Source: Bacillota bacterium (GTDB lineage: Bacteria > Bacillota > Sulfobacillia > DUMF01). Taken from it: 64,000 bases of DNA. Made by a program: the position numbers and the translations under genes. Shown one piece after another: positions 9,396-26,637 of this stretch (positions are counted from its first letter, which is position 1; each line of letters opens with the position of its first letter). The notes under the pieces are model-generated. The model searched no databases. It worked only from the letters and a program-made list of their open reading frames with translations, and was not told where the DNA came from. The DNA is taken from contig DUMF01000026.1 of the NCBI GenBank assembly GCA_012840015.1, positions 21,176 through 85,175 of the forward strand. The letters run 5' to 3'.

Positions 9396-9502
9396 GAACC
9401 CTCCCCCGGCCACCCGCCGCAATAGCCAGGGGAGGAAACGCAACCATCCACACCAATCGCTCGAGTTCACTCTACTTGCCCAGGAAAGGGAAAGTGGTGG
9501 TT

Positions 9503-9540
9503 GCAGAAGAAAAATAAAATTAGCGGGTATTATTACCCGC
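9503..9540 (-). terminator. Rho-independent terminator after the AT-rich cassette
   Basis: Hairpin gcgggta-ttat-tacccgc at 9523-9540. It is followed on the minus strand by TAATTTTATTTTTCTTCT. Confidence 0.5.
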
Positions 9541-9556
9541 ACAAATTTGGTTAATT

Positions 9557-9988: not shown

Positions 9989-10061
9989 ATTTCACGTAGC
10001 GGCCCCTTCCTGCCGCTAAATTCCTCCTTTCATCCGGTTTGCGACAAGCTTTGTCTTTCTG

Positions 10062-11445: not shown

Positions 11446-12228
11446 TTAGCCGTGTTCACCTCCCTCCACAGCTGGGTGCGACGGCATTGGAACCCCAGCG
11501 CGAAGCTTGTCCTTGAGCCGGTAGCTCTGGCCGCGGATGTTGATGGTAACGGAGTGGTGTAGAAGGCGATCAAGCAAGGCGCTGGCTAAAATGGGATCGC
11601 CGAGCAGTTGTCCCCAGTTACCGTAGCTCACGTTGGAAGTGATGATGATCGACCCCTTCTCATACCTCTCTGCCACGACCCGGAAGATATGGGCCGCGTC
11701 CGCTGGCTCGATGGGCAGATACGTCATCTCGTCCAGTATGAGGAGCTTTGGCCGCGTATAGAGCTTCAGGCGCCTTTCAAACCGGTTCTCAAGGTAGGCC
11801 TTTCTTAGATCCGAAATCATTTCCTGGGCCGTGATGAAGTAGGTGCTGATGCGCCGCTTGACGGCTTCTATTCCCCAGAGCGACTGCAAGGTGCGTCTTC
11901 CCGACCCCGGGTGGGCCCAGAACCAGGATATTGGTGGCATTGTCAACGAAACCCAAGGTGGCCAGTTCCCTTACCTGGCGCTCGTCTATCGAGGGCTGAA
12001 ATGAAAAGTCGAACTCCCCGAGCGTGCAGCCAGCTTCATGAACGCAGTAGTATACCTCTGATAACGATATTCCATCTCCGCATCAAGCAAGCGGGCGATG
12101 AACTCGGTGTAGGTAAGCGATTCCCTTGCCGCTTCCTCGGCATGAGAAGGAAGCAAATCCGCCATTCGGTTAAGGCCTAGCTCACGCAGCAAGGCATCTG
12201 CTCGGTCAAGCGCCATGGCTTCGTTCAT
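11446..12228 (-). pseudogene. istB: IS21 helper ATPase IstB, frameshifted between N-terminal and Walker-A regions
   Basis: N-terminal piece 12228-11986 (LRELGLNRMADLL...TYTEFIARLLDAEMEYR). C-terminal piece 11946-11446 starts at HPGSGRRT and has LILDEMTY and ASALLDRL. Confidence 0.7.
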
Positions 12229-13457
12229 CTGCCCATCACCAACCGCTCGTACACATCAAGCGGCCGAACCTCCACATCGGGCGCCAGCTGGTGCGCGTAG
12301 ACGGTCTGCCGGAACCGTGCGGAACCCATGGGAATACCGCGGTAGTGCCTGCGGTCCACGACCGTCCGGTAACGCCCTCTCATCACCTCGTGAGTGGCTA
12401 CCACTTGGCCGGCGTGTTCAACGGTCAGGACTCCCTTTTCGTTCTCCCTGACGAGCACTGTATGGCCTACCAGGTTCCAGGGAACGGAGTAACGGTTCGA
12501 GTACCAGGAGATAAAGCAGTCTAAAGATACCCGCCGGGGTTCGATTTCCTCCAGTAAGAATCGTCCGCCCGGCAGGGGTTGCAGGTTCTCCTCCTGCCAC
12601 CTTTTTAAAGGGACCTCGTGGGTGGTGCCATGCACTCTCACGTTGGCCACTGCATCCCGCCAGGCCAAGGCCTGCCGGTTGAGATCATCTATGTCGGTGA
12701 AGTTCACCGGCCAGAAGCTATCTCGTATGTAGCGAATGGGTCGCTCGATCTTTCCTTTCGTCCGACTGCGGTAGGGACGGCAGGCCCGGGGAGTGAAGCC
12801 GTAGTGCTCGCAGAAGCGGAGGTACCCAGGCTGCCAATTGACTCCGTCCTCGTCGCGGGAAAGCACAAGGCTTGAGCAGTTGTCGCTAAGCGCTTCCACA
12901 GGGACACCTCCGAAGAACTCCAGAGCGTTGCGCAGTCCACGTAGTATATTCAATTGATCTGACCTTGGGATGAATTCTACGTAAAGCATGCGGGAGTAAC
13001 AGAGAGTCATGGCGAAACAATACACCGTGGACACCGTATTGTTTGCGTCAAGATACTTGAACATCCCTAAGTCGAGCTGGGCCTGCTGGCCGGGCGGAGT
13101 CTCGAACCTGCAGGTAGCTTTCCCTGCAAGTGGTGGACGGTAAGGTCTCATGAAGTCGCGCAGGATGGTGATCCCGCCCTGGTAGCCACGTTCGCGTATT
13201 TCTCGCAGCAGTCGGGCGGCGTTAAAGACTCCGGCCTCCATGCGCTCGAGGAGGTAGTCCTTGTGAGCATCCAGTTTGCTACCTCTTCTTGCTCCCTGCG
13301 CTTCACCTGGGACCCGCCTGAACGCTTCGTCGGTAACTACCTTCCTGATCGTCTTGCGGTCATGTCCGGTGCGCCGTGCCAGTTCGCTGATACTAACTCT
13401 CTCACGATACGCTTTTCTGATGTCCAACATTTCCTCACCCCTTAGCATTCTGGGCAC
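12225..13457 (-). CDS. istA: IS21 transposase IstA
   Basis: 410 aa with an N-terminal HTH (ISELARRTGHDRKTIRKV) and a DDE region. Adjacent to istB. Confidence 0.85.
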   Translation of the reverse strand: MPRMLRGEEMLDIRKAYRERVSISELARRTGHDRKTIRKVVTDEAFRRVPGEAQGARRGSKLDAHKDYLLERMEAGVFNAARLLREIRERGYQGGITILRDFMRPYRPPLAGKATCRFETPPGQQAQLDLGMFKYLDANNTVSTVYCFAMTLCYSRMLYVEFIPRSDQLNILRGLRNALEFFGGVPVEALSDNCSSLVLSRDEDGVNWQPGYLRFCEHYGFTPRACRPYRSRTKGKIERPIRYIRDSFWPVNFTDIDDLNRQALAWRDAVANVRVHGTTHEVPLKRWQEENLQPLPGGRFLLEEIEPRRVSLDCFISWYSNRYSVPWNLVGHTVLVRENEKGVLTVEHAGQVVATHEVMRGRYRTVVDRRHYRGIPMGSARFRQTVYAHQLAPDVEVRPLDVYERLVMGR

Positions 13458-14052
13458 CTCCGATCGCCAGTCTTCGGTGCCCTGATTCGCCAGGGGGGAA
13501 TTCTTTCTGTTGATTTTGAGGAATTCTCAACCGTTATTTTTGTAGACATGATAAAAGCGCAAGCCCGCCGAATTGAGGTGTGAGCGGTTTAGATGGGGTG
13601 CGGGTGGGGCAGCCGAAAAATCCCCTGGGACGTGTGAGCCCGAGTTTTTGTATGGCTGCCCCCAACGACCCGCCCAATTGGGACGAAGCTCCCGGATAGG
13701 TGAGTGTCGCAGCTTCTCCGCCTGCGCCCAAAGCAATTGTTTGCGGGGATTTTATCACCGTTGCTAACATCCTCGCGCTGTTAAATTGGAATCCCGAAGC
13801 AGTAAACCCAACTTTGACAGCGAACCAGTAAAATTAAGGGGTCTGTAGAGACGATTTTCACTATGGCCCCTCAGGAGGTGCCATTTCTGCAGAACACCTT
13901 GGGTGGCAAGGAAGCTTGAAGTCTTTCCATGGATCTGCTTCTGAGCTGGTCCGGGTTCAGTTATGGTGTAGAACCTGCGGTTTACTCCTGATCCACTGCC
14001 TTGATTCTGTCTAGCTCTTCGAAGATGCGTCAGCCGCTCAGGTGAGAAGCCT

Positions 14053-14470
14053 TTAGTTCGCGACGTTTCGCTTCCAGGTGCTCCCTGGGTGGTAAGCGAG
14101 ACGCTTCATACATCTCGGCTTCGATGTGGTAGCGGTGCAGCACGTAAAGCCACTGTTCGAAAAGTAAGCCAGCACGCAGATAAGGACGCGACCGCGCACA
14201 CGTGTTTGGTTGTAGTGGTAGATGAGCCGGAGGCGGATGAAGTCTTTGATCTCACGGAAAGCATTTTCGACCTGTAGGAGGTTCTTGTGGCCGGTCACCA
14301 CCGCTTCAGGTTCAAGGTCGCTGTTCGTCTTTACGAGAAACTTCCCGTCTCGGAGGCTCTCCTCTGCGATAGCAGCTTCGTTACGCTGGAAGCCGAGTGT
14401 ACCTTGGCCATCGTAAACAACATCGAATAACAGTGTTATGCCTTTCTTCTCTAGGATCCTGGCTAGCTTA
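14053..14470 (-). pseudogene. IS4/IS1634-like (DDE_Tnp_1) transposase C-terminal fragment
   Basis: LLQVENAFREIKDFIRLRLIYHY...RVLICVLAY matches the conserved C-terminus (W.VE..FR.LK..L.LRPIYH....RI.GH.FICFLAL). The frame opens after a TAA. Upstream frames are broken. Confidence 0.5.
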
Positions 14471-15547
14471 CGGCAATGCCTTTGGGGGTGAGCTTACGTC
14501 CGTGCCCGGGCGTCTTGTTTTCAGCTGCACTTCGAGACCTTTTAGTTCTTCTTCCACCTCTTTGAGCGCTTCTCCCCCGAAGGTAGGGGCATCCTCAGCC
14601 TCAGCCGCGTTACAATAGAGAATATAGCGGATTTTTGGTTGCGTCCCTGGTTTTCGCTCCTCGCCCGGAACATCAGTTGCACAACTTCCTTGTAGAGGAG
14701 GGAACCTCCTTCGCCAGTACGACTGTAGGTTGGTACTATTCAGCGCTCCAACTATTCGCCACGCATCAGGTCCGATTTCGCTTGCACTTATACGGTCCTT
14801 TCACTTTTCGTGAACCTGACGAGTTCTCCTGAGCTCACGTAATCATCTTCCATTCCGTGCCGTCCGCAAACATCTTGGTACGATGGGGCTGATGCACAGT
14901 GCCTTCGCCTCCGCAGTGCACGCTAGACCTTTCCCCATCTTTGGCCGACCGGTTCGTCTCGTTGACTACGGTCCGGAATCTCCCCGCATGCCCCTGGGAT
15001 TCTCCATCACGAGAGACACCCTGCCTGCCCTGGCTGCCTCACGCGGGCGAGGCATTACTCCCGACTTTGGATACGGCGCCCCGCATCCGAGCACCAGCGG
15101 GACTTTACCCCACCTGATGATTACGCTGCTCAGCCCACGCTACGGACTCGTCTGCCGCCCTGCACCACGTCTTCTCTCCCTTGCCTCTCAGTTTTTTGAG
15201 AGCTTACCAAGTTTACTTGGATGATACAGCGTTTCCCCAGTTAAGCCTGCCTGAACATGAACCCGTGCGTCCGAACTCCCCAGGTTATCCAGCCCTCGGG
15301 CTTTCCCACTCTATGCAAGGTTATCCACCTGTAGAGCCAACCTCGGTTCGCTTAGCGGTACGTTCCGTGTCCTTTCTTCGGCTTCCTTCAGACCCTGCCG
15401 TTACCTGCGGCGCCCTTGCCTACCGATTGTTTTCCCGCTGGTCAGGTGACAGGGTTTCTTTCAACCCATCGGCTCAGCAGACATGCTGGGCAAACACAAA
15501 AGCGCGGGAAGTTTCCCGCGCCTTCAGCAGTAAAGCCGCACCAAGCA
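14471..15547. other. About 1.1 kb with no coherent ORF on either strand; plus strand C-rich (unassigned)
   Basis: All six frames give only short low-complexity ORFs. There is strong C-over-G bias on the plus strand. No rRNA or group II intron signature was recognised. Confidence 0.3.
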
Positions 15548-16489
15548 TCAGCCGGGCTTCTCCGCGTAGCACCTCACAGTGTTGGATCGCAGTTTTCTCC
15601 CCAGAATGCTTTCGGCTCTCAGACCAACAGCCATCAGTTTGTTCAAGTCAATCCCGGTTTTGACCCCCATTTGCTCGAACAACCATACGAGATCTTCAGT
15701 GCAGGTGTTTCCGGCGTAGCCATAATGGTAGAGAGGTGATCCCGTCGCTGGCTGGCCGCCAATCCCTCCCACTGAGCAGTCGAAGTAAATCATCCCTTCC
15801 TCGAGGGCAGCCACGTTATTGGCTATACCCGATCCCCTCGTATCGTGAAAATGCACGATCACTTGCTCTGGCTGAAAACCCTCTTCTCGAACTCGCGAGT
15901 AGAATCTCTTGACCTGCTTGGGGTTTGCCATTCCGGTGGTGTCGCCGAAGCCAACCCAGGTGGCCCCTTGCGACAACCACCAGTGGCCAAACCAAAGCAC
16001 TTTCTCCATGGGAACCTCTCCCGTTATGGGACAGCCGAAGGACGTAAGCACCCAGCCGAGAATTTTGAAGCCATTGGCGAGAGCCATCTTGCACATACTC
16101 TCCAGCTGGAGCAGGTTCTCCTTATGGGTCATGTTTACGTTGGCGATGTTATGAGCCTCGCTAGCAGAAATAACCATGGCTATTTCGTCGATCTTGAGCC
16201 CCTTTTGCTTGGCCGCCACAGCCCGTTCCATCCCTTTCAGGTTGGTCACTATGGCCCGAAAGTTTACCCCTGGCTTTTGCTGAATACTTGAAAGCACTTC
16301 TTCAGCGTCCGCGAACTGGGGCAAGGTTTTGGGGCTCGCGAAACTGGTTACTTCGATTTCCTTGAACCCTGCATCCTGAAGAGCGTCTATCATCTCAACC
16401 TTCAGTTTGGTCGGGACGATGAGTCTTTCGTTTTGCAGGCCGTCCCTCGCCCAGCACTCCCCTATTATAACCCTTCTCGGTTCCATCAT
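15548..16489 (-). CDS. HMG-CoA lyase-family (DRE-TIM) protein
   Basis: Contains GECWARDGLQN and HFHDTRGSGIANNVAALEEG (HMGL signature H.HDT.G...AN). Confidence 0.75.
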   Translation of the reverse strand: MMEPRRVIIGECWARDGLQNERLIVPTKLKVEMIDALQDAGFKEIEVTSFASPKTLPQFADAEEVLSSIQQKPGVNFRAIVTNLKGMERAVAAKQKGLKIDEIAMVISASEAHNIANVNMTHKENLLQLESMCKMALANGFKILGWVLTSFGCPITGEVPMEKVLWFGHWWLSQGATWVGFGDTTGMANPKQVKRFYSRVREEGFQPEQVIVHFHDTRGSGIANNVAALEEGMIYFDCSVGGIGGQPATGSPLYHYGYAGNTCTEDLVWLFEQMGVKTGIDLNKLMAVGLRAESILGRKLRSNTVRCYAEKPG

Positions 16490-16511
16490 GCCGCAGACCC
16501 CCTGGCACGAT

Positions 16512-17771
16512 TCAGGACATTTCCCGGATCAGTTCCCGAGCGTAATCGATCCGGATTTTCCCCGCTCTCACCATCGCTTCAGCCACCTTATCAACTAGTT
16601 CCCCGGTGGCGCCAGCCGTCACCGCCACGTTTCTTGCATGAAGAGCCATGTGCCCTCTTTGTATGCCTTCCGTAGCCAGCACTCTCAGAGCAGCCAGGTT
16701 TTGGGCCAGTCCAACCGCAGCGAGCACCTCCCCTAGCTCGCCGGCCGTCTCGCATCCGAGTATCTTGACCGCAATCTTAGCTACCGGATGTACCTTTGTG
16801 GCTCCGCCGATCAGCCCAACTGCCACAGGCAACTCGATGCTACCCGTAAGGTTCCCATCTTTGTCCTTCTCCCACCGGGTGAGCGGACCATAATGCCCCG
16901 TCCTGGCGGCATATGAGTGGGCTCCGGCTTCTATGGCCCTGGTGTCGTTGCCGGTAGCGAGGACGACAGCCGTCACCCCGTTCATCACACCCTTATTATG
17001 GGTTGCTGCTCTGTATGGGTCCGCGGCGGCAAACTGGTACGCCAGGACGATTCCGTCCACCACCTCTTCCCCTCCCAGAGACTCTTTGGGCACCACGGTA
17101 CGTGCTCTGGCAACCCGCCTGTCTGCCAGATTCGATAGAATTCTCAGGCAGACCCTCCCACCGGTTATTCTCTCGATAGTCGGCGCCAGCGCCTCTGCCA
17201 TGGTGTTGACCGCATTGGCACCCATAGCGTCCCTCACGTCGACGAGAAGATGGGTCACCACCATCTTTCCGCACTCTGCCTCTATCACCCGGACTTCGAT
17301 ATCCCTGGCTCCTCCGCCGAGCTCCACCAGCACCGGGTCTTTTTGGTTTGCCAACTCCAAGATCTCGTCTCGAGCTTCAAGGAGTCTCAGCCTAGCAGCC
17401 GCCGGATCGATCACGTTTACGGCCTGAATTTGGGCGATCATTATCGGGCCCGTACTGCTTGTGAAGAAGCCGCCGCCATCCCTGGCCAACTTTGCCGCAT
17501 GACTACAAGCAGCTACCACCGAAGGCTCCTCTACCACCATAGGTATCAGGTAGTCCTTTTGGTTGATGAGGAAGTTCACCGCAATCCCGAGGGGCAGCTG
17601 GAACGTTCCGATAACGTTCTCGATCATCCGGTCGGCAGCGTCGAGGCTCAACGCCCCCGGGGCCTTGAGCGCAGATACTTCGTCGTCAGTGAGTGACGCG
17701 AATTCTTTGACGAATTTCAACCGTTCATCCACACTCAGTTTGTAGAAACCGCTCACCTTTGAGCTGGCCAT
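16512..17771 (-). CDS. Class II (degradative-type) HMG-CoA reductase
   Basis: Contains ENVIGTFQLPLGIA, DAMGAN and GTVGG-like motifs of class II HMGR. AGGAGGG RBS precedes the MASSK start. Confidence 0.85.
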   Translation of the reverse strand: MASSKVSGFYKLSVDERLKFVKEFASLTDDEVSALKAPGALSLDAADRMIENVIGTFQLPLGIAVNFLINQKDYLIPMVVEEPSVVAACSHAAKLARDGGGFFTSSTGPIMIAQIQAVNVIDPAAARLRLLEARDEILELANQKDPVLVELGGGARDIEVRVIEAECGKMVVTHLLVDVRDAMGANAVNTMAEALAPTIERITGGRVCLRILSNLADRRVARARTVVPKESLGGEEVVDGIVLAYQFAAADPYRAATHNKGVMNGVTAVVLATGNDTRAIEAGAHSYAARTGHYGPLTRWEKDKDGNLTGSIELPVAVGLIGGATKVHPVAKIAVKILGCETAGELGEVLAAVGLAQNLAALRVLATEGIQRGHMALHARNVAVTAGATGELVDKVAEAMVRAGKIRIDYARELIREMS

Positions 17772-17782
17772 TTGCATCCCTC

Positions 17783-19144
17783 CTATTTGGTCACCAACCG
17801 CAGGATCTGTGATACTATCCACCCGGAAGCGTAATATCCCATGAACTGGACTCCCGTGTGGATATCAAAGTAGTTGTGCAGGATGCCACCGAACAGAGCT
17901 ATGGTCAGAGCAACCGCCACCCCTACTATTCCCGCTTCATAATAGGCCAACATGATGATCAGCCCTACGAACGAACCGATCAGCGCTTCATGGCTTACCA
18001 GTTTGAACAGAAGCTCTGTGCCCTTGCGCGCGTACTTTATCGCCACCGGGTAAGCGATTAAAGCGCCGCCAATCATTCCAATATACCCGAACACGATGTA
18101 CTGCCACGGCGCCAAGTAATTGTGAAGGTTGTGTATCGGGTTTACAGTGAACCTAGGTGGTGCATTGAACAGCGGAGCTGCAGGACCCAGCCCCATGGGA
18201 CTCAGTGGTAAGCCGAAGGCCAGTAAAGGCACGATGACCTCTCCAAGATAAGTCGCATTGCTCACCGCGTCCATGACCGCAATGGTGGTTGTGGATCTGT
18301 CGTACACCTCTTTGCACCGCGCACCGAATATTTCTCCTAACAGTACCGTCATTCCGGCTGGAGAAAAGGTAAAGGTGCATGCCGACAATGCCGAAGCAAT
18401 TGACACGAAAATGTTTTGTTTCTTCGTGAGGATTTTGAACGGGTTTGGGAATAAACCAGAGTACTTTTGGATTTCCGGGGCGAGCCATACTTCGTTCATA
18501 GAGTGCCGCATCTGTTTGGCCCGTATCTTGGGTATAGTGGTGTTGAAGACCTCGGCCACCATGGGGCCCACGGTTATACCCATGAATATCGAGATGAAGA
18601 GGGTTTTGTTTACACTGGCCTGTGCCACTTTCTGAAGTCCCTGGATCAGGAAAGAGTAAGGTATTATAGCTAGAACCGCTCCCCACTTGGCTTTGGACAT
18701 CAAAGCGAGTATGACAGCCCCAACAGTGAACAAAAACGGGGCATACGGTGCGATCTGCTTGCCGAACGGAGCCAAAGCAATTCCAAACGCTGTAGCGACA
18801 GGAATTGCAATGATGCTACCGATTAGCGAACCGGCAGCCATTTTTCTCATGGCCATGTGCGGGGCGCCCAGGCGCTTCGCGATTGAACAACCGAACACCA
18901 TGGGGACCGCCATAGTGCTGCCGGGAAGCGCCGCCATTGCTGTCGGAATGGTATGAGAGATTTGCATAGCCGTGGCTATGCCTATGAACCATGAGAATAT
19001 CACCACCGGAGAAGCGCCCAGAAGAACCAGCACCAGAGTGAGCGGTACCATAGTGGCGGTTTCGTCGGTACCGGGGACAATCCCGATGATGGTAAAAATC
19101 ACTCCGCCGACGATCGCCGCGACGAACGAAAGTAAGATCTCCAT
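17783..19144 (-). CDS. TctA-like (DUF112) large transporter subunit
   Basis: 453-aa polytopic protein. It has the repeated P-G-x-G glycine-rich segments typical of tripartite tricarboxylate transporter TctA. Confidence 0.55.
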   Translation of the reverse strand: MEILLSFVAAIVGGVIFTIIGIVPGTDETATMVPLTLVLVLLGASPVVIFSWFIGIATAMQISHTIPTAMAALPGSTMAVPMVFGCSIAKRLGAPHMAMRKMAAGSLIGSIIAIPVATAFGIALAPFGKQIAPYAPFLFTVGAVILALMSKAKWGAVLAIIPYSFLIQGLQKVAQASVNKTLFISIFMGITVGPMVAEVFNTTIPKIRAKQMRHSMNEVWLAPEIQKYSGLFPNPFKILTKKQNIFVSIASALSACTFTFSPAGMTVLLGEIFGARCKEVYDRSTTTIAVMDAVSNATYLGEVIVPLLAFGLPLSPMGLGPAAPLFNAPPRFTVNPIHNLHNYLAPWQYIVFGYIGMIGGALIAYPVAIKYARKGTELLFKLVSHEALIGSFVGLIIMLAYYEAGIVGVAVALTIALFGGILHNYFDIHTGVQFMGYYASGWIVSQILRLVTK

Positions 19145-19151
19145 GGCGTCT

Positions 19152-19568
19152 TCACCCCCTTACGTTTCCTGAAAGGAAGTCCTTCAACCCCAGTTCAGAA
19201 AGCTCCGTAGCCGTCTGTGCATCGATGGACTCGAGAGCCTGTCGTTCTTCCTCAAGTGTCATGCCCGCCGCGTTCAAAATCTCAGGTAATTCGGCGTGCT
19301 CAGCTTTCTCCACTATCACGCGCTTAGGTTTGAAAAGGATCGCCGCCGTAACACAGCTGATGATGCACCCGACAACCCCAACCATCATGGCGTACCCCTT
19401 GGCCAGGTCGGGCTTTATGCCAGGATTCCGAGAAAAGAATGACAGACCAAACGAGTAGAAGGCCATGGTCAATACAACCCCCAATACGGTCGAGACAGCG
19501 AGGTGCTCTAATTTGACCGTATCGCCCCATACACTAGCGTATGGAAGTCGCTCTTCCTTCTGGCTCAC
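19152..19568 (-). CDS. Small membrane protein, possible TctB-like subunit
   Basis: About 139 aa with 3-4 hydrophobic helices, immediately upstream of the TctA-like gene. GTG start with AAAGGGGGAA RBS. The longer track ORF would begin inside the sigma54 promoter. Confidence 0.4.
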   Translation of the reverse strand: MSQKEERLPYASVWGDTVKLEHLAVSTVLGVVLTMAFYSFGLSFFSRNPGIKPDLAKGYAMMVGVVGCIISCVTAAILFKPKRVIVEKAEHAELPEILNAAGMTLEEERQALESIDAQTATELSELGLKDFLSGNVRG

Positions 19569-19596
19569 CCTGATTCCCCCTTTCACCATCGGATCG

Positions 19597-19612
19597 AGCA
19601 AAAACCGTACCA
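19597..19612 (-). promoter_or_regulatory. Sigma54 (-24/-12) promoter TGGTACGgtttTTGCT
   Basis: Reverse complement of 19597-19612 reads TGGTACGGTTTTTGCT. GG and GC have canonical spacing, 20-30 nt upstream of the transporter operon start and downstream of the sigma54 activator gene. Confidence 0.6.
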
Positions 19613-19801
19613 CTTCCGCTTGTCCTCCTGCGAAGCTGAACCAACGTGGGAAAGTAAGAAGCTGCAGCCTACAACTGCATACGGGTGTATACAGGTCTCA
19701 CGCCGCTAGAGAAAAATGCCGCTCTTGCGCTTATTTTCAGTCAGTTCTGGCTGTTTACTTTGGAACACATGGTGTATGCCAGAGGAAACAATAGGGAGGG
19801 C

Positions 19802-21544
19802 TTAGTTGGCTATCAGTCCGTGACGGCGCAGTTTTTTATAAAAGGTGCGTCTGCTTATGCCCAGAAGCTGCATCGCCCTGGTCTTATTGCCGCCCGCCTG
19901 CGCCAGGGCCGTCAGGATTACTTCTCGCTCGGTGCTATCCAGGACTCGCCTCAGGTTCCGCTCCTTTTGTTCCGGCACCCGGATTGCAGCAGTGTGAAGC
20001 CTAGTTTTTAGGTAGGCAGGTAGATGAGAGGGGCTTAGGACCCCACCGTCGGTCGCCACTACTGCACAGTGTTCTATTACGTTGCGAAGTTCCCGGACGT
20101 TACCCGGCCAATCATAGTCCATCAACGCCCGAAGTAGATCGTCGCTAAGGCGCAGGCTTTTCCCGTTGGCGGCCGTGAATTCGTCCAGGAAACGCTGGCA
20201 CAAGGCCGGTATATCCAGTTTCCGCGCTCTAAGGGGAGGGATGACAATGGATACGACGTTCAACCTGTAATAGAGGTCCTCCCTGAACTTCCCTTCTCTT
20301 ACCATATGCCAAAGGTCTCTGTTGGTGGCAGCTATTACCCTGATGTCTACTTTCGTAGTCTTTGTGCTCCCTATTCGTTCGAACTCCCGTTCCTGCAGCA
20401 GTCGCAGGACCTTCGCCTGCATTATCGGGCCCATATCCCCGACCTCATCGAAGAAAAGCGTACCGCCTTGAGCCAGTTCGGCCTTACCTGGCTTCCCGCC
20501 CTTACGCGCGCCTGTGAAAGCCCCTTCTTCGTATCCAAACAGTTCACTTTCCACCAAGGTTTCCGGTATCGAGGCGCAGTCCACGCAGATAAGCGGCATG
20601 TGAGCCCGCGGGCTGGAGAAATGAATTGCTCTGGCTACTAGTTCTTTGCCCACGCCGCTCTCGCCGGTTATCAGGACCGTCGCGTTGGTGGGAGCAACTC
20701 TCGCAGCCAGCGACAGAGCTGCCTTCATTACCTCGCTCTCTCCAACAATTGTTTTAAACGCTTCCGGCAATGGCATCTCAGTTTGCAGTTCCGCCTGCAG
20801 ATATCTAGCGATCATTTCTGCATTTTGAAGCCTAGCGATGAGACGCTTCGTCTCAGTCATGTCCCTGAAGACGGAAACGGCTCCTGTAATCTCATCGCCT
20901 GCCATTATGGGGGAGATGTTTACTACCACGTGTCTATCGACGCTCTTGATATGCACTTTCTCCTCCATCACCTCTTGACCGGTCTCCAAAACGCGGAGGA
21001 TTCTGGCATTGGGTTCCACATCTCTCAGTCTCTTGTGCAAGATCGAATGGATGGGTACCCCGAGAATCCTGGTGTAAGCAGGGTTTACGAAAATCACAGT
21101 AGACTCCTTGTCTACTACGATGACTCCTTCGCTCATGGAGTTGAGCACTGCGGCCAGTGCAAGATGACTCCTCTCATATTCCTGTGAGAGGGCCCTGATT
21201 AGAGTCCTCTCAGTGACGAGGCCCAACAGTCTCCCTTCAGAATCGCAGACGTATAGTCTGGGTTTCCCTTCCTTGAGAATCAACCTCTGGATTCTGCTTA
21301 TCGGGGTGTCAGTGCTGATCCTTACTGCATCACTTATCAGGTCGTCGACGCGCCTTGTCGCGCTGGGCCTGTCCCCGAGTCGGCGGCGAAAAAGCTCGCC
21401 CAGAAGACGGCCGGCCGAATCTACGACAGGTAGCTGTTTGAGGTCCGTTTGAAGAAACAGATCCATAGCTTCCTTTGCGGTGCTGCCAGAAGGAATCGAG
21501 GTTACGGGGGAAACCATGATGTCCTCAAGCTTCACAGGCGTCAC
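19802..21544 (-). CDS. Sigma54-dependent transcriptional activator with CBS and PAS sensor domains
   Basis: N-terminal CBS pair, PAS (SEGVIVVD), AAA+ sigma54 interaction domain ([22 protein letters not shown]), and C-terminal Fis-type HTH. Confidence 0.9.
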
Positions 21545-21974: not shown

Positions 21975-22197
21975 GCTCCATCCGCTCAGAAAATTTTCTA
22001 TTTATCAAGAAGGAGTTGGCTAACAAACGAAGAATATACTATCCGCGGTGAAATAGTATGCGATTTGCTTAAGATCGGTATTCTAGATGGGGGTGAATAT
22101 TATTCTGAATGCCGGTCTATCGCATACCATGGTGTACACAATAAGATACCGGCTTCACGTTGGTTAGTCTCACCTTGTACGGAAAGGAAGGGTGTAT

Positions 22198-23097
22198 ATG
22201 GACCTAGTCGACAGCGTTGTGGACGGAGCTCTTGACCTCCATCAACATCTGGGGCCGTCTGTTCTGCCGCGAGACCTCGACGTAGCGGAGGCAACGATCG
22301 AGGCGCAAGAGGCGGGCCTGAAGGCGATTACCGCTAAGGACCACCATGTCCCCACTATGGCTCTCGCCGACTTAGTACAGAAGCATTTCGTTAAAAAACC
22401 AGGTTTCAAGGTATTCTCTGGCATAGCTCTAAACAACCACATCGGAGGTCTAAACCTTGAAGCCCTGGAGACTGCCATAAACATGGGTGCCAGGTTCGTG
22501 TGGATGCCTACTGTCTCAACCGAGAATCACCATATCAAGCACACGAAGGGCGGGCTCAAATTCCCCACTGCTAAGAAGGTGTCCGCGGTACAGCACGAGT
22601 ACATTCCGTTAGTAAAAGAAGATGGGTCTCCGACAGACGACGTCCTACGAGTACTTGAATTTGTGGCTCAATATCAACAAGTCGTACTGAGCACAGGTCA
22701 TGGGAACGCGCAGGAAGTCGATGCCATCGTAAAGGCAGCTGCTGGCCTGGGAGTTAAACACATCATAGTGAACCACCCCGCATACATGATCGGCGCTACC
22801 ATTGAACAAATGAAAGCCTGGGCTAAGCTCGGTGCCTACCTCGAGATTGGTGCTGCAACATCCGACCCGGCATCGAAGTTTTGTGCTGTGGACATGAGCA
22901 CCACACTGAGAATCATTCGAGAGGTCGGGGTGGACCACATCATCATGAATTCGGACTGTGGGCAGCTCGGCAATATACGACCTGTAGCCGCAATCAAGCA
23001 CTTCAGTCGCCTATTGCTCGACAACGGAGTTACGGTACGTGAGCTGGAGACTATGCTTAAGACTAACCCGCGAACAGTTATGGAGATGGAGGACTGA
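22198..23097 (+). CDS. TIM-barrel metal-dependent hydrolase-like protein (amidohydrolase superfamily-like)
   Basis: N-terminal DLHQH motif (HxH metal ligands). About 300 aa. GGAAGGG RBS lies before ATG 22198. Confidence 0.45.
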   Translation: MDLVDSVVDGALDLHQHLGPSVLPRDLDVAEATIEAQEAGLKAITAKDHHVPTMALADLVQKHFVKKPGFKVFSGIALNNHIGGLNLEALETAINMGARFVWMPTVSTENHHIKHTKGGLKFPTAKKVSAVQHEYIPLVKEDGSPTDDVLRVLEFVAQYQQVVLSTGHGNAQEVDAIVKAAAGLGVKHIIVNHPAYMIGATIEQMKAWAKLGAYLEIGAATSDPASKFCAVDMSTTLRIIREVGVDHIIMNSDCGQLGNIRPVAAIKHFSRLLLDNGVTVRELETMLKTNPRTVMEMED

Positions 23098-23124
23098 GAA
23101 AAAGATACACTGGAGGTTACAGGA

Positions 23125-23826
23125 GTGCAGCACAACACCACGACAACTGAAACGAAACTTAAGGCGGACTTAGTGTACGACCACCTAAAGGAGAAGATCA
23201 TCTCCAGGGAACTCAAACCAGGCGAGCTCATACGTATCGATGCAGTAGCTAAAGAGCTCAATGTCAGTAAGACCCCCGTGCGTGAGGCATTGAAGCAGCT
23301 AGCTGCTAAGGGATTCGTAGAGATGAGGCCGAACTCAGGCGCCCGTGTGGCACGTCTCGATCTTGACGAGCTCGAGCAAATCTTCCTTGTTCGAAGGGAG
23401 CTTGAGGCTCTTGCTACGCGTCTCGCAGCTGAGAAGATAGACAGTTCGACCATAGCCAGGCTCCGGCAACTGGCGGACGAGATGGAAAAAGCTTGCAAGA
23501 CTGGAGACGCGAAGCTCTACGGACGGCTTAACAAGGAGTTCCACCTGACCGTCTACCGGAGCAGTAAGGCAGACGTAGTGATTCGCCTGATCGAAGATCT
23601 CTTCGACAGGAGTGAGTATTCGCGCTTGGTATTCTCAATGCTGCCTGACAGGTTTGAGCTTTCAAACAAAGAGCATTATGAATTGATCGAGTGTCTAGAA
23701 CGGGGCGACAGTGACCGTGCTTGCCAGATAATTGACAAGCAGAAGTCTGAAGGATTCTTCCGTCTTATCCGACTGCTCAAGGAGTACGAGAAACTGCAGA
23801 GCGGCACCGCCGCAGAGAAGCGATAA
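23125..23826 (+). CDS. GntR-family (FadR/FCD subfamily) transcriptional regulator
   Basis: N-terminal winged HTH (ELNVSKTPVREALKQL) and C-terminal FCD-like helical domain. Confidence 0.8.
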   Translation: MQHNTTTTETKLKADLVYDHLKEKIISRELKPGELIRIDAVAKELNVSKTPVREALKQLAAKGFVEMRPNSGARVARLDLDELEQIFLVRRELEALATRLAAEKIDSSTIARLRQLADEMEKACKTGDAKLYGRLNKEFHLTVYRSSKADVVIRLIEDLFDRSEYSRLVFSMLPDRFELSNKEHYELIECLERGDSDRACQIIDKQKSEGFFRLIRLLKEYEKLQSGTAAEKR

Positions 23827-23873
23827 ATCTGAGAACCTAAGTAAAAATCCAAGCAGAGAAAGGAGCAATCACA

Positions 23874-24206
23874 ATGTTACATGCAGCCAACTGGAAAGAG
23901 ATTAAAGAAGTGGTGGTGAGGCCAGGAGTTATGCGAAAGGCTTTCACCGGCGAGGGGGCTACTCTTGCGCTTAACAGGCTACAGCCTGGACACGAACCCA
24001 GGCCCCATGCCCATCCACACGAGCAGATCGTTTATATCATAAAGGGCAAGACCAAGTTCCACGTGGGTGATGAGATGGTGGTACTGGAGGAGGGAGGACT
24101 GCTCGTAGTACCACCCAACGTCGTCCATTATGCCGAAGTGCTCGGCGATGAAGAGGTTATTAACCTCGACGTGTTTACGCCCAAGAGGGAGGAGTACGTT
24201 AAGTGA
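23874..24206 (+). CDS. Cupin-2 domain protein
   Basis: 110 aa with PHAHPHEQIVYIIKG and a second conserved cupin motif. Confidence 0.7.
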   Translation: MLHAANWKEIKEVVVRPGVMRKAFTGEGATLALNRLQPGHEPRPHAHPHEQIVYIIKGKTKFHVGDEMVVLEEGGLLVVPPNVVHYAEVLGDEEVINLDVFTPKREEYVK

Positions 24207-24964
24207 GTGACTTTAAGAAGCAGCTGGCCCAAAAGCCAATGCTCGGTATATTTGTCAAAATCCCCAGTACTGAGATAATCGAGATGATTGCCTGGGCTGG
24301 GTTCGATTTCATCATTATCGATATGGAACACTCCCCCTTATCATACGGCGATGTGAAACTACTCACCTCGGTTGCTCAGCCGCAGGGCCTTAAGGTAGTC
24401 GTCCGGCCGTGGAACTTCGCGGATGATACATTGCTCCACGTGCTGGATACGGGCGTCGACGGAATCCAGGTCCCCCAGATTACTGGGCCCGCCGACGCAC
24501 AAAGGATCGTACGCGCCAGCAGATACCCGCCGCTCGGAACAAGGGGCGTGGCGTTCTCACATCGCGCTGGCAGGTACGGTTTTTCCGACACGAAGTCGTA
24601 CCTGACGGAGGCCAACGAAGAGACCCTGGTCGCGGTCCACATTGAAACTCGTGATGCGTTTGACTCAGTACGAGAGATAGCCAACACGCCCGGAGTCGAC
24701 CTGCTATTCCTCGGCCCTGTTGATCTGTCGTTTTCGCTCGGGGTCGACAGCGATTTTGTAAATGGTGGACTCAGGGACGCCTTCCTGAAGATCAACCGGG
24801 AAGTGAAAGAGGCCGGCAAACAGATGGGGATCGTTGTTGGCGATGAAAGAAAACTGGAATTTTGCTTAAACCATGGGATTCACTACGTTGTCTGGGATAC
24901 AGACGTCGGTCTGTTCAAAAAACAGCTGACAGCGGTCAGACAGACCGTAAAGAGATATTTCTGA
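24203..24964 (+). CDS. HpcH/HpaI-family 2-keto-3-deoxy-acid aldolase
   Basis: Contains FDFIIIDMEHSP and VRPW motifs of HpcH/HpaI aldolase/citrate-lyase family. Confidence 0.8.
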   Translation: MSDFKKQLAQKPMLGIFVKIPSTEIIEMIAWAGFDFIIIDMEHSPLSYGDVKLLTSVAQPQGLKVVVRPWNFADDTLLHVLDTGVDGIQVPQITGPADAQRIVRASRYPPLGTRGVAFSHRAGRYGFSDTKSYLTEANEETLVAVHIETRDAFDSVREIANTPGVDLLFLGPVDLSFSLGVDSDFVNGGLRDAFLKINREVKEAGKQMGIVVGDERKLEFCLNHGIHYVVWDTDVGLFKKQLTAVRQTVKRYF

Positions 24965-24965
24965 A

Positions 24966-26036
24966 TTGGGGGAGAGAAAGGTGAAAAGACTCGTAGCCAT
25001 TGTTGTCGTGATGGTGTTGGCAGTTTCCTTTATCAGTGGCTGCGGAGCAGGTTCGGGAACCAAGCCCGCTCAACCGGCGCAACCCGCGCAGTCCGCTCAG
25101 CCATCTACGTCCCAGCAGCCCGGGCAGATCACGCTCCGCCTGGGCCACGCGGCGCAGACCTCACACCCCTTCCACATCGCAACTCAGAAATTCGTTGAAC
25201 TCGTGGCACAAAAGAGCAACGGAAAGATCAAGATAGAGGTTTTTCCGGCCCGGCAGCTTGGAGACGACGGTGAGCTCCTGGAACAGGTAATGAAAGGCAC
25301 GCTGGACATGGGTGTAATTTCGTCCTCCACGTTCAGTAAGTATACTCCTTTGCTAGATACCTTGCAGCTCCCGTTCCTACTCAGTACGTACGACAAAGAG
25401 TACAAGGCGATCACCAGCAACGAAGCAAAAGAGCTGCTTAAGGGTCTCGAGTCACTAAAGATCAAGGGCCTCGCTATTTACGAAGGCGGTATTCGCCACT
25501 TCGCCAACAACGTCCGCCCCATTACAAAGCCAGAAGACCTAAAGGGACTGAAACTAAGGGTCGTGCCGAGCAATCTGATCCGTAATAGTGTTCAGGCTCT
25601 GGGCGCGAATCCTAATCCTATGGCTTATGGCGAAGTTTACAGCGCACTTCAAACCAAGGTCATTGACGGAGAAGAAATCAACCTGACCAGCATCTACTCT
25701 GAGAAACACTATGAAGTTCTAAAGTACGTCACGCTGATAGGGTTGTGGCCGTTCCCTGCTGCTAATGTAATGAACCTGGACAAGTTCAACTCTCTTTCGA
25801 AGGAAGACCAGAAGATTCTCGAGGATTCGGCCTGGGAATCCATAGAGTACGCTATCAAAGAGCTGACCAACCTCGAGAAGACTGCGACAAAGGCCATCCA
25901 GGACAACAAAGTCCAAGTGAACGAGGTCAAGGATCTAGCCCCGTTCCAGGCAAAAGTCACAAGCATCTGGGACGAGTATGCCGCTAAAGACCCGGCAATC
26001 AAGAAGTTCGTAGATATGGCCAAGACCCTTAAGTAA
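24966..26036 (+). CDS. dctP: TRAP transporter substrate-binding protein DctP (lipoprotein)
   Basis: Lipobox ISGCGAG, then DctP-family fold. Followed by dctQ and dctM. Confidence 0.8.
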   Translation: MGERKVKRLVAIVVVMVLAVSFISGCGAGSGTKPAQPAQPAQSAQPSTSQQPGQITLRLGHAAQTSHPFHIATQKFVELVAQKSNGKIKIEVFPARQLGDDGELLEQVMKGTLDMGVISSSTFSKYTPLLDTLQLPFLLSTYDKEYKAITSNEAKELLKGLESLKIKGLAIYEGGIRHFANNVRPITKPEDLKGLKLRVVPSNLIRNSVQALGANPNPMAYGEVYSALQTKVIDGEEINLTSIYSEKHYEVLKYVTLIGLWPFPAANVMNLDKFNSLSKEDQKILEDSAWESIEYAIKELTNLEKTATKAIQDNKVQVNEVKDLAPFQAKVTSIWDEYAAKDPAIKKFVDMAKTLK

Positions 26037-26047
26037 GGGGCTACTCC

Positions 26048-26081
26048 GTGCTGGTACCGTCGTCCAGGGCGGTACCAGCAC
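26048..26081 (+). promoter_or_regulatory. Perfect 12-bp stem hairpin between dctP and dctQ
   Basis: gtgctggtaccg-(10 nt)-cggtaccagcac. No T-tract follows. Likely mRNA stability or attenuation element. Confidence 0.4.
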
Positions 26082-26121
26082 CTCCCACCTAACTTGTCAT
26101 CGTAGACAGCCATCGAGCAGT

Positions 26122-26634
26122 TTGGGGGTGAATGGAATGAACAACACGGGTCTTTTGTCTAAGGTTACCGATTTCATGGAGTCCGCGGCTAAGTCTTTCC
26201 TTACGGTTGCGTTTGGTATCATGACCCTGGTTACGTCTGTCGAAGTAATCAGGCGTTATATATTCGGGCTGTCTTTTCCTTGGGCGGAGGAACTCGTTCG
26301 ATTCCTCCTGGTATGGGTGACGTTCATTGGTGGGAGCGTCGCCTTCAAACGGGGGGAACTCGTGTACCTAGACCTTTTCGTAGACAAACTCTCACCCACG
26401 TTTAAGAAAGTGGCGAAGGGGATCGTTACTGCCGTCACACTTGTATTTCTGCTCATCACGCTGTGGCTTAGTATTGACTATGTACGATCCCCGTCAATAA
26501 CAATGCAAATCAGCCCTGGCATGAACGTCCCGATGGCCTATCCGTACGCGGCCATCCCGGTGGGTCTCTCACTCATGATAGTTTTTTGCATAAGCAACCT
26601 GCTAAGTGCCAGCAAACCCGGAAAGGAGGGATGA
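26122..26634 (+). CDS. dctQ: TRAP transporter small permease DctQ
   Basis: 170-aa four-helix membrane protein between dctP and dctM. Confidence 0.75.
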   Translation: MGVNGMNNTGLLSKVTDFMESAAKSFLTVAFGIMTLVTSVEVIRRYIFGLSFPWAEELVRFLLVWVTFIGGSVAFKRGELVYLDLFVDKLSPTFKKVAKGIVTAVTLVFLLITLWLSIDYVRSPSITMQISPGMNVPMAYPYAAIPVGLSLMIVFCISNLLSASKPGKEG

Positions 26635-26637
26635 CGG

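Follow-up and report, generated by a model that had tools for sequence, protein, structure and literature searches.

We find that a Bacillota genome carries a compact gene cluster that is likely to be a sigma-54–controlled, substrate-inducible operon for mevalonate uptake and catabolism, as judged by comparison with related loci. The cluster lies in a 64,000-nucleotide stretch of DNA, analyzed whole and referred to here as the window. A sequence-only reading of this DNA had proposed a sigma-54 operon in which a TctA-type importer is coupled with an HMG-CoA reductase of the degradative type and an HMG-CoA lyase (HMGL)–family enzyme. Promoter conservation, the grouping of the reductase, and gene linkage support this proposal. 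The features of the locus are as follows:

19802–21544, minus strand: sigma-54 enhancer-binding activator, CBS pair-PAS-AAA+ (GAFTGA)-Fis-type HTH, 580 amino acids (Pfam domains, motifs)
19675–19694, minus strand: candidate UAS, imperfect palindrome CTGTATAC-ACCC-GTATGCAG (spacer comparison with the related operon L001)
19597–19612, minus strand: predicted sigma-54 promoter, −24/−12 element TGGTACGgtttTTGCT (motif scan and conservation in orthologous spacers)
19152–19568, minus strand: small membrane subunit of the permease, ~138 amino acids from GTG 19568 (sequence, ribosome-binding site, hydropathy)
17783–19144, minus strand: TctA-family large permease subunit, 453 amino acids, divergent subfamily (PF01970)
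16512–17822, minus strand: class II NAD(H)-type HMG-CoA reductase, MvaA-like (TIGR00532, PDB matches, residues)
15548–16489, minus strand: HMGL-family lyase, 313 amino acids, non-canonical subclade (NF004283, PF00682)

An ORF check of the window confirmed all five genes at these coordinates on the minus strand. Together with the Pfam domains, it agrees with the arrangement read earlier, in which the activator lies directly upstream of a four-gene minus-strand operon. The operon genes are co-oriented in the order small membrane protein, TctA-family permease, reductase, and lyase, with intergenic gaps of ~5 to 22 nt. The annotated start of the small ORF (GTG 19613; ORF 19152–19613) overlaps the promoter; its true start is probably GTG 19568, which is preceded by a AAAGGGGGA ribosome-binding site. 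For the reductase, the probable start is ATG 17777, 5 nt beyond the permease stop codon. The operon is inverted relative to its closest relative, L001, and abuts insertion-sequence debris, and has thus been rearranged.

The reductase and its partner lyase

The reductase matches PF00368 (387 bits) and TIGR00532 (516 bits; cutoff, 260). It groups with the NAD(H)-dependent enzymes of Pseudomonas mevalonii, Delftia, and Burkholderia, scoring 515 bits to PDB 6dio (Delftia) and 512 bits to 1qax (P. mevalonii) versus 317 to 328 bits against the biosynthetic NADPH enzymes of S. pneumoniae and E. faecalis. In the alignment, the window enzyme keeps E83, K267, D283, H381, and D146 (D162 in the window); the catalytic residues are kept in all permease-linked reductases. 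NAD(H) preference is governed by an Asp, with P. mevalonii D146 equivalent to R. pomeroyi D154 (PMC12292504). This Asp is present in the window reductase and in all 70 permease-linked reductases.

In pairing adjacent, co-oriented genes for a class II reductase of the NAD(H) type and for an HMGL-family lyase, the operon recalls mvaAB of P. mevalonii, in which the MvaA reductase and MvaB lyase serve growth on mevalonate. The predicted chemistry also matches, running from mevalonate through HMG-CoA to acetyl-CoA and acetoacetate. Unlike mvaAB, the window enzymes are predicted to be co-transcribed with a two-subunit TctA-type permease under a sigma-54 activator, and their host is an uncultured, presumably anaerobic Bacillota known from a metagenome-assembled genome. 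Nor does the window lyase keep the Cys that has been assigned to the active site of the P. mevalonii enzyme (C237).

The lyase matches PF00682 (137 bits) and NF004283 (278 bits; cutoff, 246). It keeps R41/D42, HxHDT, and GN, and its metal and substrate residues (RDGLQ, HFHDT, and GN) are intact. Alignment with human, B. subtilis, and other solved lyases places a Gln at Cys266 and reveals six inserted residues, such that its loop reads GGQP-ATGSPLYHYGYAGN where canonical enzymes have GGCP-YAxGAxGN. Judged by its sequence, it is a member of a non-canonical subclade and not a canonical HMG-CoA lyase. By the same measure, the lyase of L001 is not its orthologue: the two are only 39% identical, compared with 74% for the permease and 71% for the reductase. 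Of its three closest relatives with inspected neighborhoods, two belong to clusters of the leucine/isovalerate type and have a canonical paralogue as neighbor. Subclade members in Calderihabitans and Deferrisoma adjoin a canonical HMGL paralogue and lie near carboxyltransferase, enoyl-CoA hydratase, and acyl-CoA dehydrogenase genes. The predicted activity of the window lyase on HMG-CoA is thus uncertain, given the Cys-to-Gln replacement, the low identity to L001, and the leucine/isovalerate-type relatives.

Each of these features, and the IS21 and ORF-poor debris directly downstream of the gene, would also fit a scheme in which sigma-54 control and mevalonate oxidation hold but the last gene is a recruited leucine/isovalerate-type paralogue, with another substrate or weak activity. 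In that case, HMG-CoA would be processed elsewhere, e.g., by a canonical lyase or through dehydration to 3-methylglutaconyl-CoA. We consider such recruitment unlikely. The gene begins only 22 nt past the reductase gene in the same operon, passes the NF004283 cutoff with its key motifs intact, and recurs in another sample (P0121) at 98% identity, with its termini unchanged. Furthermore, an HMGL-like or AtuA lyase-type partner accompanies the reductase in 62 of 70 loci, and a lyase step is therefore expected at this position.

AtuA-family lyases offer a parallel. In 24 related loci, AtuA and AtuA_ferredoxin genes hold the place of the window lyase, which suggests that both types of enzyme cleave a 3-hydroxy-3-methyl acyl compound at this point of the pathway. 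Unlike those loci, the window has no AtuA or AtuA_ferredoxin genes. PDB entries 9erq and 9evf are deposited as “AtuA family protein / citramalate lyase subunit A, CmlA”; the link from AtuA to these entries rests on a common Pfam family and on gene position, with the Fusobacterium AtuA giving a marginal sequence match to 9erq (E = 0.0045).

The permease pair and its linkage to the reductase

The large permease subunit has ~10 or more hydrophobic segments by hydropathy, and no NCBIfam model matches it. It has 1473 relatives at E ≤ 1e-5, and every one of those listed carries PF01970. As in TctABC (TTT family, TCDB 2.A.80), the large subunit matches PF01970 (TctA) over its whole length, and a small membrane protein gene lies directly upstream, as tctB does for tctA. 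Unlike TctA, it belongs to a divergent subfamily with a weak PF01970 score (66 bits; cutoff, 28.9). By hydropathy, the small protein shows two hydrophobic segments in place of the four of TctB and ends in a polar tail of ~57 amino acids; it lacks the TctB signature, with no Pfam match (including PF07331) and no meaningful NCBIfam match. Thus, the name “TctB-like,” given to it earlier, is positional only. Profile searches and alignments uphold the other assignments of operon content (TctA-like permease, class II reductase, and HMGL-family enzyme) but not that of a canonical HMG-CoA lyase.

A TctC binding protein is also missing, unlike in TctABC. No TctC/Bug family protein was found among the ~45 window ORFs scanned, as the sequence-only reading had observed, or in the nine related loci with scanned neighborhoods. 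To our knowledge, the TTT-family carriers characterized so far use a TctC binding protein. A further difference is the predicted substrate, a monocarboxylic dihydroxy acid.

Linkage was counted across 80 related loci with enough upstream sequence. In 73 of these, the TctA-like gene is directly preceded by a gene for a homologue of the small protein, and in 70 an HMG-CoA reductase gene shares the locus with the permease pair. The coupling of importer and reductase, earlier called unusual, is therefore the rule for this permease subfamily. The usual order is HMGR-small-TctA, and the linked loci span at least six phyla (Bacillota, Fusobacteriota, Synergistota, Planctomycetota, Proteobacteria, and Actinobacteria). 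The reductase is present in all 27 Proteobacteria and Actinobacteria loci and in 43 of 53 anaerobe-group loci. The regulator varies by lineage (sigma-54 EBP, MocR-type GntR, or GAF-PucR), as does the lyase partner. In five rhizobial loci, an SMP-30/gluconolactonase-family gene right behind the permease is compatible with mevalonolactone as a substrate. Cultivable carriers include Fusobacterium hwasookii, Eubacterium ramulus, and Clostridium bovifaecis. Planctomycetaceae loci carry the whole module, with a permease ~64% identical to that of the window (Bacillota), pointing to possible transfer as a functional unit. The module is unnamed in NCBIfam, and we found no description of it in the literature searched.

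Loci without the reductase are also informative. In three Carnobacteriaceae loci, the permease pair lies inside (L024) or ~4 to 5 kb from (L021 and L031) an operon of the mevalonate kinase pathway, encoding mevalonate kinase, diphosphomevalonate decarboxylase, phosphomevalonate kinase, and IPP isomerase. The two kinds of partner, the reductase and the kinase pathway, have just one metabolite in common, mevalonate. The other 7 of 10 reductase-less loci have no mevalonate-related neighbors, among them a Lachnospiraceae locus (L030) with der-plsY neighbors; similar gene sizes recur in four further loci.

The TTT family is named for tricarboxylates but carries varied carboxylates. This breadth, like the seven loci above, leaves some room for a permease that carries 3-hydroxy-3-methylglutarate or another hydroxy acid, with the reductase linkage reflecting a pathway other than mevalonate oxidation. 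We find this improbable: a CoA ligase or transferase would be required for free HMG, and the operon encodes neither; the invariant partner is the reductase and not the lyase; and HMG cannot explain the Carnobacteriaceae linkage. In P. mevalonii, inducible mevalonate transport was reportedly described physiologically in the 1980s, with no gene assigned. Occurring in at least six phyla, the module thus provides a testable candidate for a bacterial mevalonate transporter.

Predicted pathway and direction

In the mevalonate-catabolic reading, a signal, most simply mevalonate or a derivative, would be sensed by the PAS domain of the activator, and the extra CBS pair may supply a second input, e.g., adenylate status. 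The activator would bind upstream and, by hydrolyzing ATP, would bring about open-complex formation by sigma-54 RNA polymerase at TGGTAC-N5-TTGCT, with transcription predicted to start ~11 to 13 nt downstream of the GC, near 19586. A single mRNA would carry the small membrane protein, permease, reductase, and lyase. The two membrane proteins might form a binding-protein–independent secondary carrier importing mevalonate. The reductase would then work oxidatively, converting (R)-mevalonate, CoA, and 2 NAD+ to (S)-HMG-CoA and 2 NADH, and the lyase would convert HMG-CoA to acetyl-CoA and acetoacetate. No acetoacetate-activating enzyme is encoded among the window ORFs scanned. In butyrate-forming anaerobes, the 2 NADH could be reoxidized via acetoacetyl-CoA to butyryl-CoA; if so, fermentation of mevalonate to acetate and butyrate would be redox-balanced.

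The HMG-CoA reductase reaction is reversible, and NADH-dependent enzymes serve mevalonate production in engineered strains (PMC12292504). The module could thus run reductively, from HMG-CoA to mevalonate exported as an electron sink or cross-feeding metabolite. This is very improbable, since net synthesis is at odds with an HMG-CoA–destroying lyase on the same transcript, neither HMG-CoA synthase nor thiolase was found in the operon or window, inducible PAS-domain activators are typical of catabolic operons, and the Carnobacteriaceae permease accompanies a mevalonate-consuming pathway.

The activator and its promoter

The activator comprises a CBS pair, PAS, Sigma54_activat (232 bits), AAA_lid_14, and HTH_8 domains, with Walker A at residue 294, GAFTGA at 341, and Walker B at 366. 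This CBS-PAS-AAA+-HTH architecture is that of PrdR, among the Clostridia sigma-54 activators (survey PMC6615313). The PrdR model aligns over the full length, but its 500 bits fall below the cutoff of 795, ruling out PrdR itself. As in Clostridia sigma-54 regulons, a dedicated activator stands beside a catabolic operon with a −24/−12 promoter. The main text of two sigma-54 regulon surveys does not mention an operon of HMG-CoA reductase and a TctA-type permease. In 37 related loci, the module is preceded by an orthologous PAS-AAA+-HTH activator, and predicted sigma-54 control is the rule in the anaerobe group (37 of 53 loci). Among the 37 activators compared, only that of the window has a CBS pair.

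The sequence TGGTACGGTTTTTGCT (19597–19612, minus strand) is the sole match to TGGYAY-N5-TTGCW on either strand of the 64 kb (0.23 expected). It lies in operon orientation within the 188-bp spacer just downstream of the activator gene. Of 36 distinct activator-to-operon spacers, 34 contain a −24/−12 element in the direction of the operon (0.39 expected from shuffles), and none contains one on the opposite strand. The earlier claim of a canonical −24/−12 element is thus well founded. The host can be presumed to have sigma-54, given this activator and promoter. That the match arose by chance, and that an ordinary sigma-70 promoter or read-through from the activator gene drives the operon, might be argued from its fourth base, a T (TGGTAC) in place of the C of TGGCAC, from the at least one match somewhere in 18 of 100 whole-window shuffles, and from the lack of any rpoN found within the window, but is extremely improbable given its conservation, its position and orientation exactly as expected beside a GAFTGA-bearing activator, the TGGTAT variants in Fusobacterium and Flavonifractor orthologues, and the absence of any sigma-70–like site found in the spacer.

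The candidate UAS lies 82 nt upstream of the −24 element. L001 has a perfect palindrome, GGGTGTATAC-TTAT-GTATACACCC, 95 nt upstream of its own −24 element, and shares the decamer GTATACACCC with the window; the chance of a common 10-mer between two regions of this size is estimated at ~13%. The window palindrome is no more than suggestive as a candidate activator-binding site.

Operon layout and predicted sigma-54 control

Five co-oriented ORFs and their Pfam domains agree with a sequence-only reading of this DNA, which had placed a sigma-54 activator directly upstream of a four-gene minus-strand operon. The features are:

15548-21544, minus strand: five co-oriented ORFs (ORF listing)
19802-21544, minus strand: activator gene, 580 aa (Pfam, NCBIfam, and motifs)
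After the activator gene: spacer, 188 bp, containing a -24/-12 element
19152-19568, minus strand: small gene, ~138 aa (most likely extent, start GTG 19568)
17783-19144, minus strand: TctA-family gene, beginning 7 nt past the small gene's stop codon
16512-17822, minus strand: reductase gene (probable start ATG 17777, 5 nt past the permease stop)
15548-16489, minus strand: lyase gene, beginning 22 nt past the reductase stop

We prefer GTG 19568 as the start of the small gene because its listed start, GTG 19613, overlaps the promoter element. The in-frame GTG 19568 lies six nucleotides after a AAAGGGGGA ribosome-binding site and agrees with the start position in homologues of the small protein. 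We saw no convincing intrinsic terminator beyond the lyase gene, and comparing the entire window with Rfam at gathering thresholds returned no RNA families.

The activator comprises a CBS pair, a PAS domain, a sigma-54 interaction AAA+ domain (PF00158, 232 bits), an AAA lid (PF25601), and a Fis-type helix-turn-helix (PF02954). Its GAFTGA, Walker A, and Walker B motifs are at residues 341, 294, and 366, respectively, and it aligns end to end with the PrdR model at 500 bits, below the cutoff of 795. None of the other 36 activators compared has such a CBS pair. In having a dedicated sigma-54 activator, the operon resembles clostridial sigma-54 systems, where this is the usual pattern.

The promoter element, TGGTACGGTTTTTGCT (19597-19612, minus strand), matches 10 of the 11 specified positions of TGGCAC-N5-TTGCW, with GG at -24 and GC at -12. 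It is the sole match to TGGYAY-N5-TTGCW on either strand of the 64-kb window, where 0.23 would be expected. In 37 related loci, the operon is directly preceded by an activator gene. Promoter matches (at least 9 of 11 positions, GG and GC fixed) are present in 35 of these 37, situated 36-170 nt before the first operon gene. Among distinct spacers, the operon strand bears such a site in 34 of 36, compared with 0.39 expected from shuffled sequence, and the opposite strand in none. Orthologues from Fusobacterium and Flavonifractor have TGGTAT variants, which resemble the window's TGGTAC. The description of a canonical -24/-12 element is thus borne out, and the sigma-54 promoter is established on the basis of sequence and conservation. 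We found no rpoN among the ~45 window ORFs scanned.

An imperfect palindrome, CTGTATAC-ACCC-GTATGCAG (19675-19694), is a candidate upstream activator site. At the equivalent distance in L001, the locus most closely related to that of the window, there is a perfect palindrome, GGGTGTATAC-TTAT-GTATACACCC, and GTATACACCC is common to both. Many spacers have one or two TGNCA-N4-6-TGNCA palindromes ~80-230 nt upstream. As activator-binding sites, these palindromes are suggestive only. When the promoter regions of the window and L001 were aligned with each other, the result was too noisy for defining an upstream activator site, and we therefore report only the shared decamer and the palindromes.

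The reductase and the lyase

The reductase scores 516 bits against TIGR00532 (cutoff 260). Among solved structures, it is closest to the P. mevalonii/Delftia enzymes (512-515 bits; 6dio 515, and 1qax from P. mevalonii 512), with 6p7k at 496 bits, compared with only 317-328 bits for the biosynthetic enzymes of S. pneumoniae and E. faecalis. By these scores it groups with the NADH-dependent enzymes and not with the biosynthetic ones; clustering with the latter was among the signs that the sequence-only reading had named as speaking against its assignment. The reductases of P. mevalonii and B. cenocepacia are listed as strictly NADH-dependent, and cofactor preference is governed by an Asp equivalent to P. 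mevalonii D146 (R. pomeroyi D154), a position occupied by Tyr or His in NADPH-type reductases (PMC12292504). The window reductase keeps this residue, as D162, along with E83, K267, D283, and H381 (P. mevalonii numbering). The catalytic residues and the D146 equivalent are also kept in 70 permease-linked reductases. With the family model passed, higher scores to NADH-type enzymes, and D146 retained, these comparisons identify a class II, NAD(H)-type reductase, as expected of the degradative enzyme first proposed. We reject a biosynthetic role: the enzyme has the NAD-type Asp and a co-transcribed lyase, and no mevalonate kinase pathway genes were found among the window ORFs scanned.

The lyase belongs to the HMGL family (PF00682, 137 bits; NF004283, 278 bits against a cutoff of 246). 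In an alignment with solved lyases, including those of human and B. subtilis, it keeps ARDGLQ, HFHDT, and GN (human R41, D42, H233, H235, and N275). However, the GGCP loop reads GGQP in the same alignment and is followed by six inserted residues. The cysteine of GGCP is the active-site residue of the characterised lyases (human C266, P. mevalonii C237), so that a defining feature of canonical HMG-CoA lyase is missing. The substitution is characteristic of a subclade: Gln is present in 8 of 8 aligned members, and Cys in 4 of 4 canonical HMGL-type sequences aligned alongside. Members of the subclade are 58-69% identical to the window lyase, the nearest being from Calderihabitans, Deferrisoma, and Myxococcota; one copy, from another sample, is 98% identical.

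Two loci carrying relatives of the window lyase, from Calderihabitans and Deferrisoma (L085 7001-8894; L086 5087-8014), have the subclade member adjoining a canonical HMGL paralogue in leucine/isovalerate-type clusters. Both loci have an enoyl-CoA hydratase gene close by, and the Calderihabitans one has carboxyltransferase and acyl-CoA dehydrogenase genes as well. A third subclade context differs from this pattern. The window and L001 lyases are only 39% identical, compared with 74% for the permeases and 71% for the reductases; by this comparison, the window lyase and that of its nearest related reductase operon are not orthologues. Thus, of the proposed HMG-CoA lyase, the domain, the NF004283 match, and the metal and substrate residues stand, but the catalytic Cys is replaced by Gln and the L001 enzyme is not its orthologue. 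The lyase is for these two reasons the weakest link in the window pathway. The Gln variant also raises the question of how HMGL-family catalysis proceeds without the catalytic Cys.

The permease pair and its genomic partners

The large subunit matches PF01970 (TctA) weakly but over its full length (66 bits against a cutoff of 28.9; profile positions 2-413 of 423), as anticipated from sequence alone. Source annotations call it "tripartite tricarboxylate transporter permease" or hypothetical. The small protein has two hydrophobic segments (~22-46 and ~55-81) and a polar tail of ~57 residues. It had been called TctB-like, a label we do not retain: it has no Pfam match at E ≤ 0.01, including to PF07331 (TctB), and has two hydrophobic segments instead of TctB's four transmembrane helices. 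It corresponds to TctB by position only. NCBIfam has no model for either membrane protein. No TctC/Bug binding protein (PF03401) was detected among the ~45 window ORFs scanned, consistent with its reported absence, or among neighbours scanned or annotated in nine related permease loci (L001-L004, L021, L030, L058, L063, and L067). The pair therefore shares the TctA large subunit with the TTT family (TctABC), but two of the three defining components were not recognised among the ORFs scanned.

Relatives of the permease number 1473 at E ≤ 1e-5. We aligned 14 of them and used the alignment to search contigs representing one genome per species, which gave 80 loci (the best 80 of 285 relatives); identical-protein-sequence look-ups supplied four more. 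All loci were compared by tblastn with the window proteins. Counts are over the 80 loci in which the sequence upstream of the permease extends for at least 2.6 kb, drawn from the best 80 of 285 relatives and the look-ups. The loci form an anaerobe group (n = 53; Bacillota, Fusobacteriota, Synergistota, and Planctomycetota; 57-75% permease identity) and a Proteobacteria and Actinobacteria group (n = 27; 41-46%).

Genes accompanying the permease, counted in loci from the best 80 of 285 relatives
Gene in locus; all loci; anaerobe group; Proteobacteria and Actinobacteria
HMG-CoA reductase; 70/80; 43/53; 27/27
HMGL-like lyase; 38/80; 17/53; 21/27
AtuA and AtuA_ferredoxin; 24/80; 24/53; 0/27
Sigma-54 activator; 37/80; 37/53; 0/27
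MocR-type GntR regulator; 21/80; 0/53; 21/27
GAF-PucR regulator; 6/80; 0/53; 6/27

Reductase and permease thus form a constant core, around which regulator and lyase partner are interchangeable. The usual order is HMGR-small-TctA, with the reductase mostly immediately upstream. Given linkage in 70 of 80 loci (best 80 of 285 relatives), we reject chance adjacency of permease and reductase, and the same count removes the earlier impression that their coupling is unusual. Rhizobial modules have a divergent MocR-type GntR-aminotransferase regulator, and Microbacterium versions have GAF-PucR. In five rhizobial loci (L063 11407-12435; L064, L065, L071, and L080), an SMP-30/gluconolactonase-family gene directly follows the permease. 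Its product could be a mevalonolactone hydrolase, as the family would fit mevalonolactone hydrolysis.

Neither type of lyase partner is nearby in eight reductase-bearing loci. In 24 loci (best 80 of 285 relatives), an AtuA (PF07287) and AtuA_ferredoxin gene replaces the HMGL-type lyase beside the reductase:

L003 4552-6284; L005, L006, L009, L012-L020, L023, L025, L027-L029, L033, L035, L041, L042, L048, L056

An AtuA family protein in PDB entries 9erq/9evf is named "citramalate lyase subunit A (CmlA)". This name, together with the replacement of the lyase, suggests that AtuA proteins may offer another way of cleaving HMG-CoA-like substrates, a possibility relevant to what AtuA does in the catabolism of acyclic terpenes. 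We found no paper on AtuA as a citramalate lyase in the open-access literature.

The reductase is missing from 10 of the 80 loci (best 80 of 285 relatives). In three of these ten, all Carnobacteriaceae, the pair is found next to the genes of the lower mevalonate pathway or among them; all four of these pathway genes score above NCBIfam equivalog cutoffs. In one (L024 39-6343), fni and mvk are followed by the small and TctA genes on the opposite strand, then by pmk and mvaD. In the other two (L021, 737-11350; L031, 1083-11350), mvk-mvaD-pmk-fni lies ~4-5 kb upstream of the pair. This arrangement suggests that the Carnobacteriaceae pair serves mevalonate salvage for isoprenoid synthesis. Nothing informative adjoins the pair in the other seven reductase-less loci; in L030, from Lachnospiraceae, it comes after der and plsY, and four more loci have genes of equal size there.

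Mevalonate is the one metabolite common to the reductase and kinase-pathway partners, and this is the strongest argument for the substrate. HMG was also considered as the transported substrate; it is rejected because the operon has no CoA-activating enzyme and because the permease is tied to the kinase pathway elsewhere. We give roughly even odds to the proposal that the small and TctA proteins form the mevalonate permease of bacteria. This permease would be a branch of the TTT family that needs no binding protein and spans at least six phyla, and it would serve catabolism beside an NAD(H)-type reductase and salvage beside the mevalonate kinase pathway.

Proposed pathway and local history

Gene sequences and their conservation show which parts make up the operon and in what order, that it has a sigma-54 promoter and an NAD-type reductase, and that permease and reductase are linked. 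In the pathway we propose, the activator would sense mevalonate or a derivative and open the sigma-54 promoter, and the two membrane proteins would import mevalonate with no binding protein. The reductase would convert mevalonate, CoA, and 2 NAD+ to HMG-CoA, from which the lyase would yield acetyl-CoA and acetoacetate. In butyrate formers, conversion of acetoacetyl-CoA to butyryl-CoA could consume the two NADH. The enzymology would be the same as that of P. mevalonii mvaAB.

To our knowledge, mevalonate catabolism is known biochemically from essentially this one organism, P. mevalonii, and we know of no gene to which its mevalonate transporter has been assigned. Searches of the open-access literature found no paper on a TctA-type mevalonate transporter or a sigma-54-controlled HMG-CoA reductase operon, and the main text of two sigma-54 regulon surveys does not mention HMG, mevalonate, or TctA. 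The chemistry is ordinary; of moderate interest is a widespread, unnamed module that would serve mevalonate uptake and catabolism. The window has one instance of this compact module, for which the reductase and the kinase pathway provide two independent links to mevalonate.

The pair is a concrete two-gene candidate for a mevalonate importer and makes the identity of the transporter directly testable. An importer gene would be of use in metabolic engineering, where one group resorted to evolving a yeast lactate carrier for mevalonate import (PMC12405511). If the proposal is true, sigma-54 would control mevalonate fermentation in many anaerobes (Fusobacterium, Anaerococcus, Eubacterium ramulus, Flavonifractor, Synergistaceae, and the organism of the window). 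For anaerobes of the gut and mouth, mevalonate from hosts, archaea, or Gram-positive cocci may be an overlooked nutrient, and the module would be a new class of target in the sigma-54 regulons of Clostridia and Fusobacteria. As a corollary, AtuA with AtuA_ferredoxin would be an alternative HMG-CoA-type lyase, giving a function to the AtuA of the acyclic terpene pathway.

The surroundings of the operon indicate rearrangement. Features flanking it are:

22192-27918, opposite strand, abutting the activator end: divergent cluster of DUF6282, GntR/FCD regulator, cupin, HpcH/HpaI aldolase, and TRAP DctP-DctQ-DctM genes
13458-15547: ORF-poor stretch of ~2.1 kb, abutting the lyase end
12225-13457: istA of an IS21 element
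11986-12228 and 11446-11946: istB of the same element, split in two

L001, from a Bacillota MAG, has the same gene order as the window operon (identity: permease 74%, reductase 71%, activator 56%, small protein 55%). The genes that come next on that strand encode DUF6282, GntR, cupin, HpcH aldolase, and TRAP DctPQM. In the window, this cluster is on the opposite strand, and the 6-kb operon block is therefore inverted relative to L001. The cluster is probably a separate catabolic unit for some acid. The different lyase type may be connected with the rearrangement. Searches of the ORF-poor stretch by blastx and tblastx gave no informative match, and an 82-aa ORF within it (14053-14301), which resembles a transposase fragment, had no Pfam match, so that we propose no identity for it.

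The L001 reductase gene (9469-10718) is in two overlapping pieces in different frames and is uncalled in the source record, reflecting either a frameshift or a MAG assembly error. A 36-bp intergenic repeat (97% identity) occurs in the window at 13771-13806 and 28392-28427, 14.6 kb apart. A large serine recombinase of 518 aa (35824-37380; Resolvase, Recombinase, and zinc ribbon domains) is a further sign of mobile DNA in the window.
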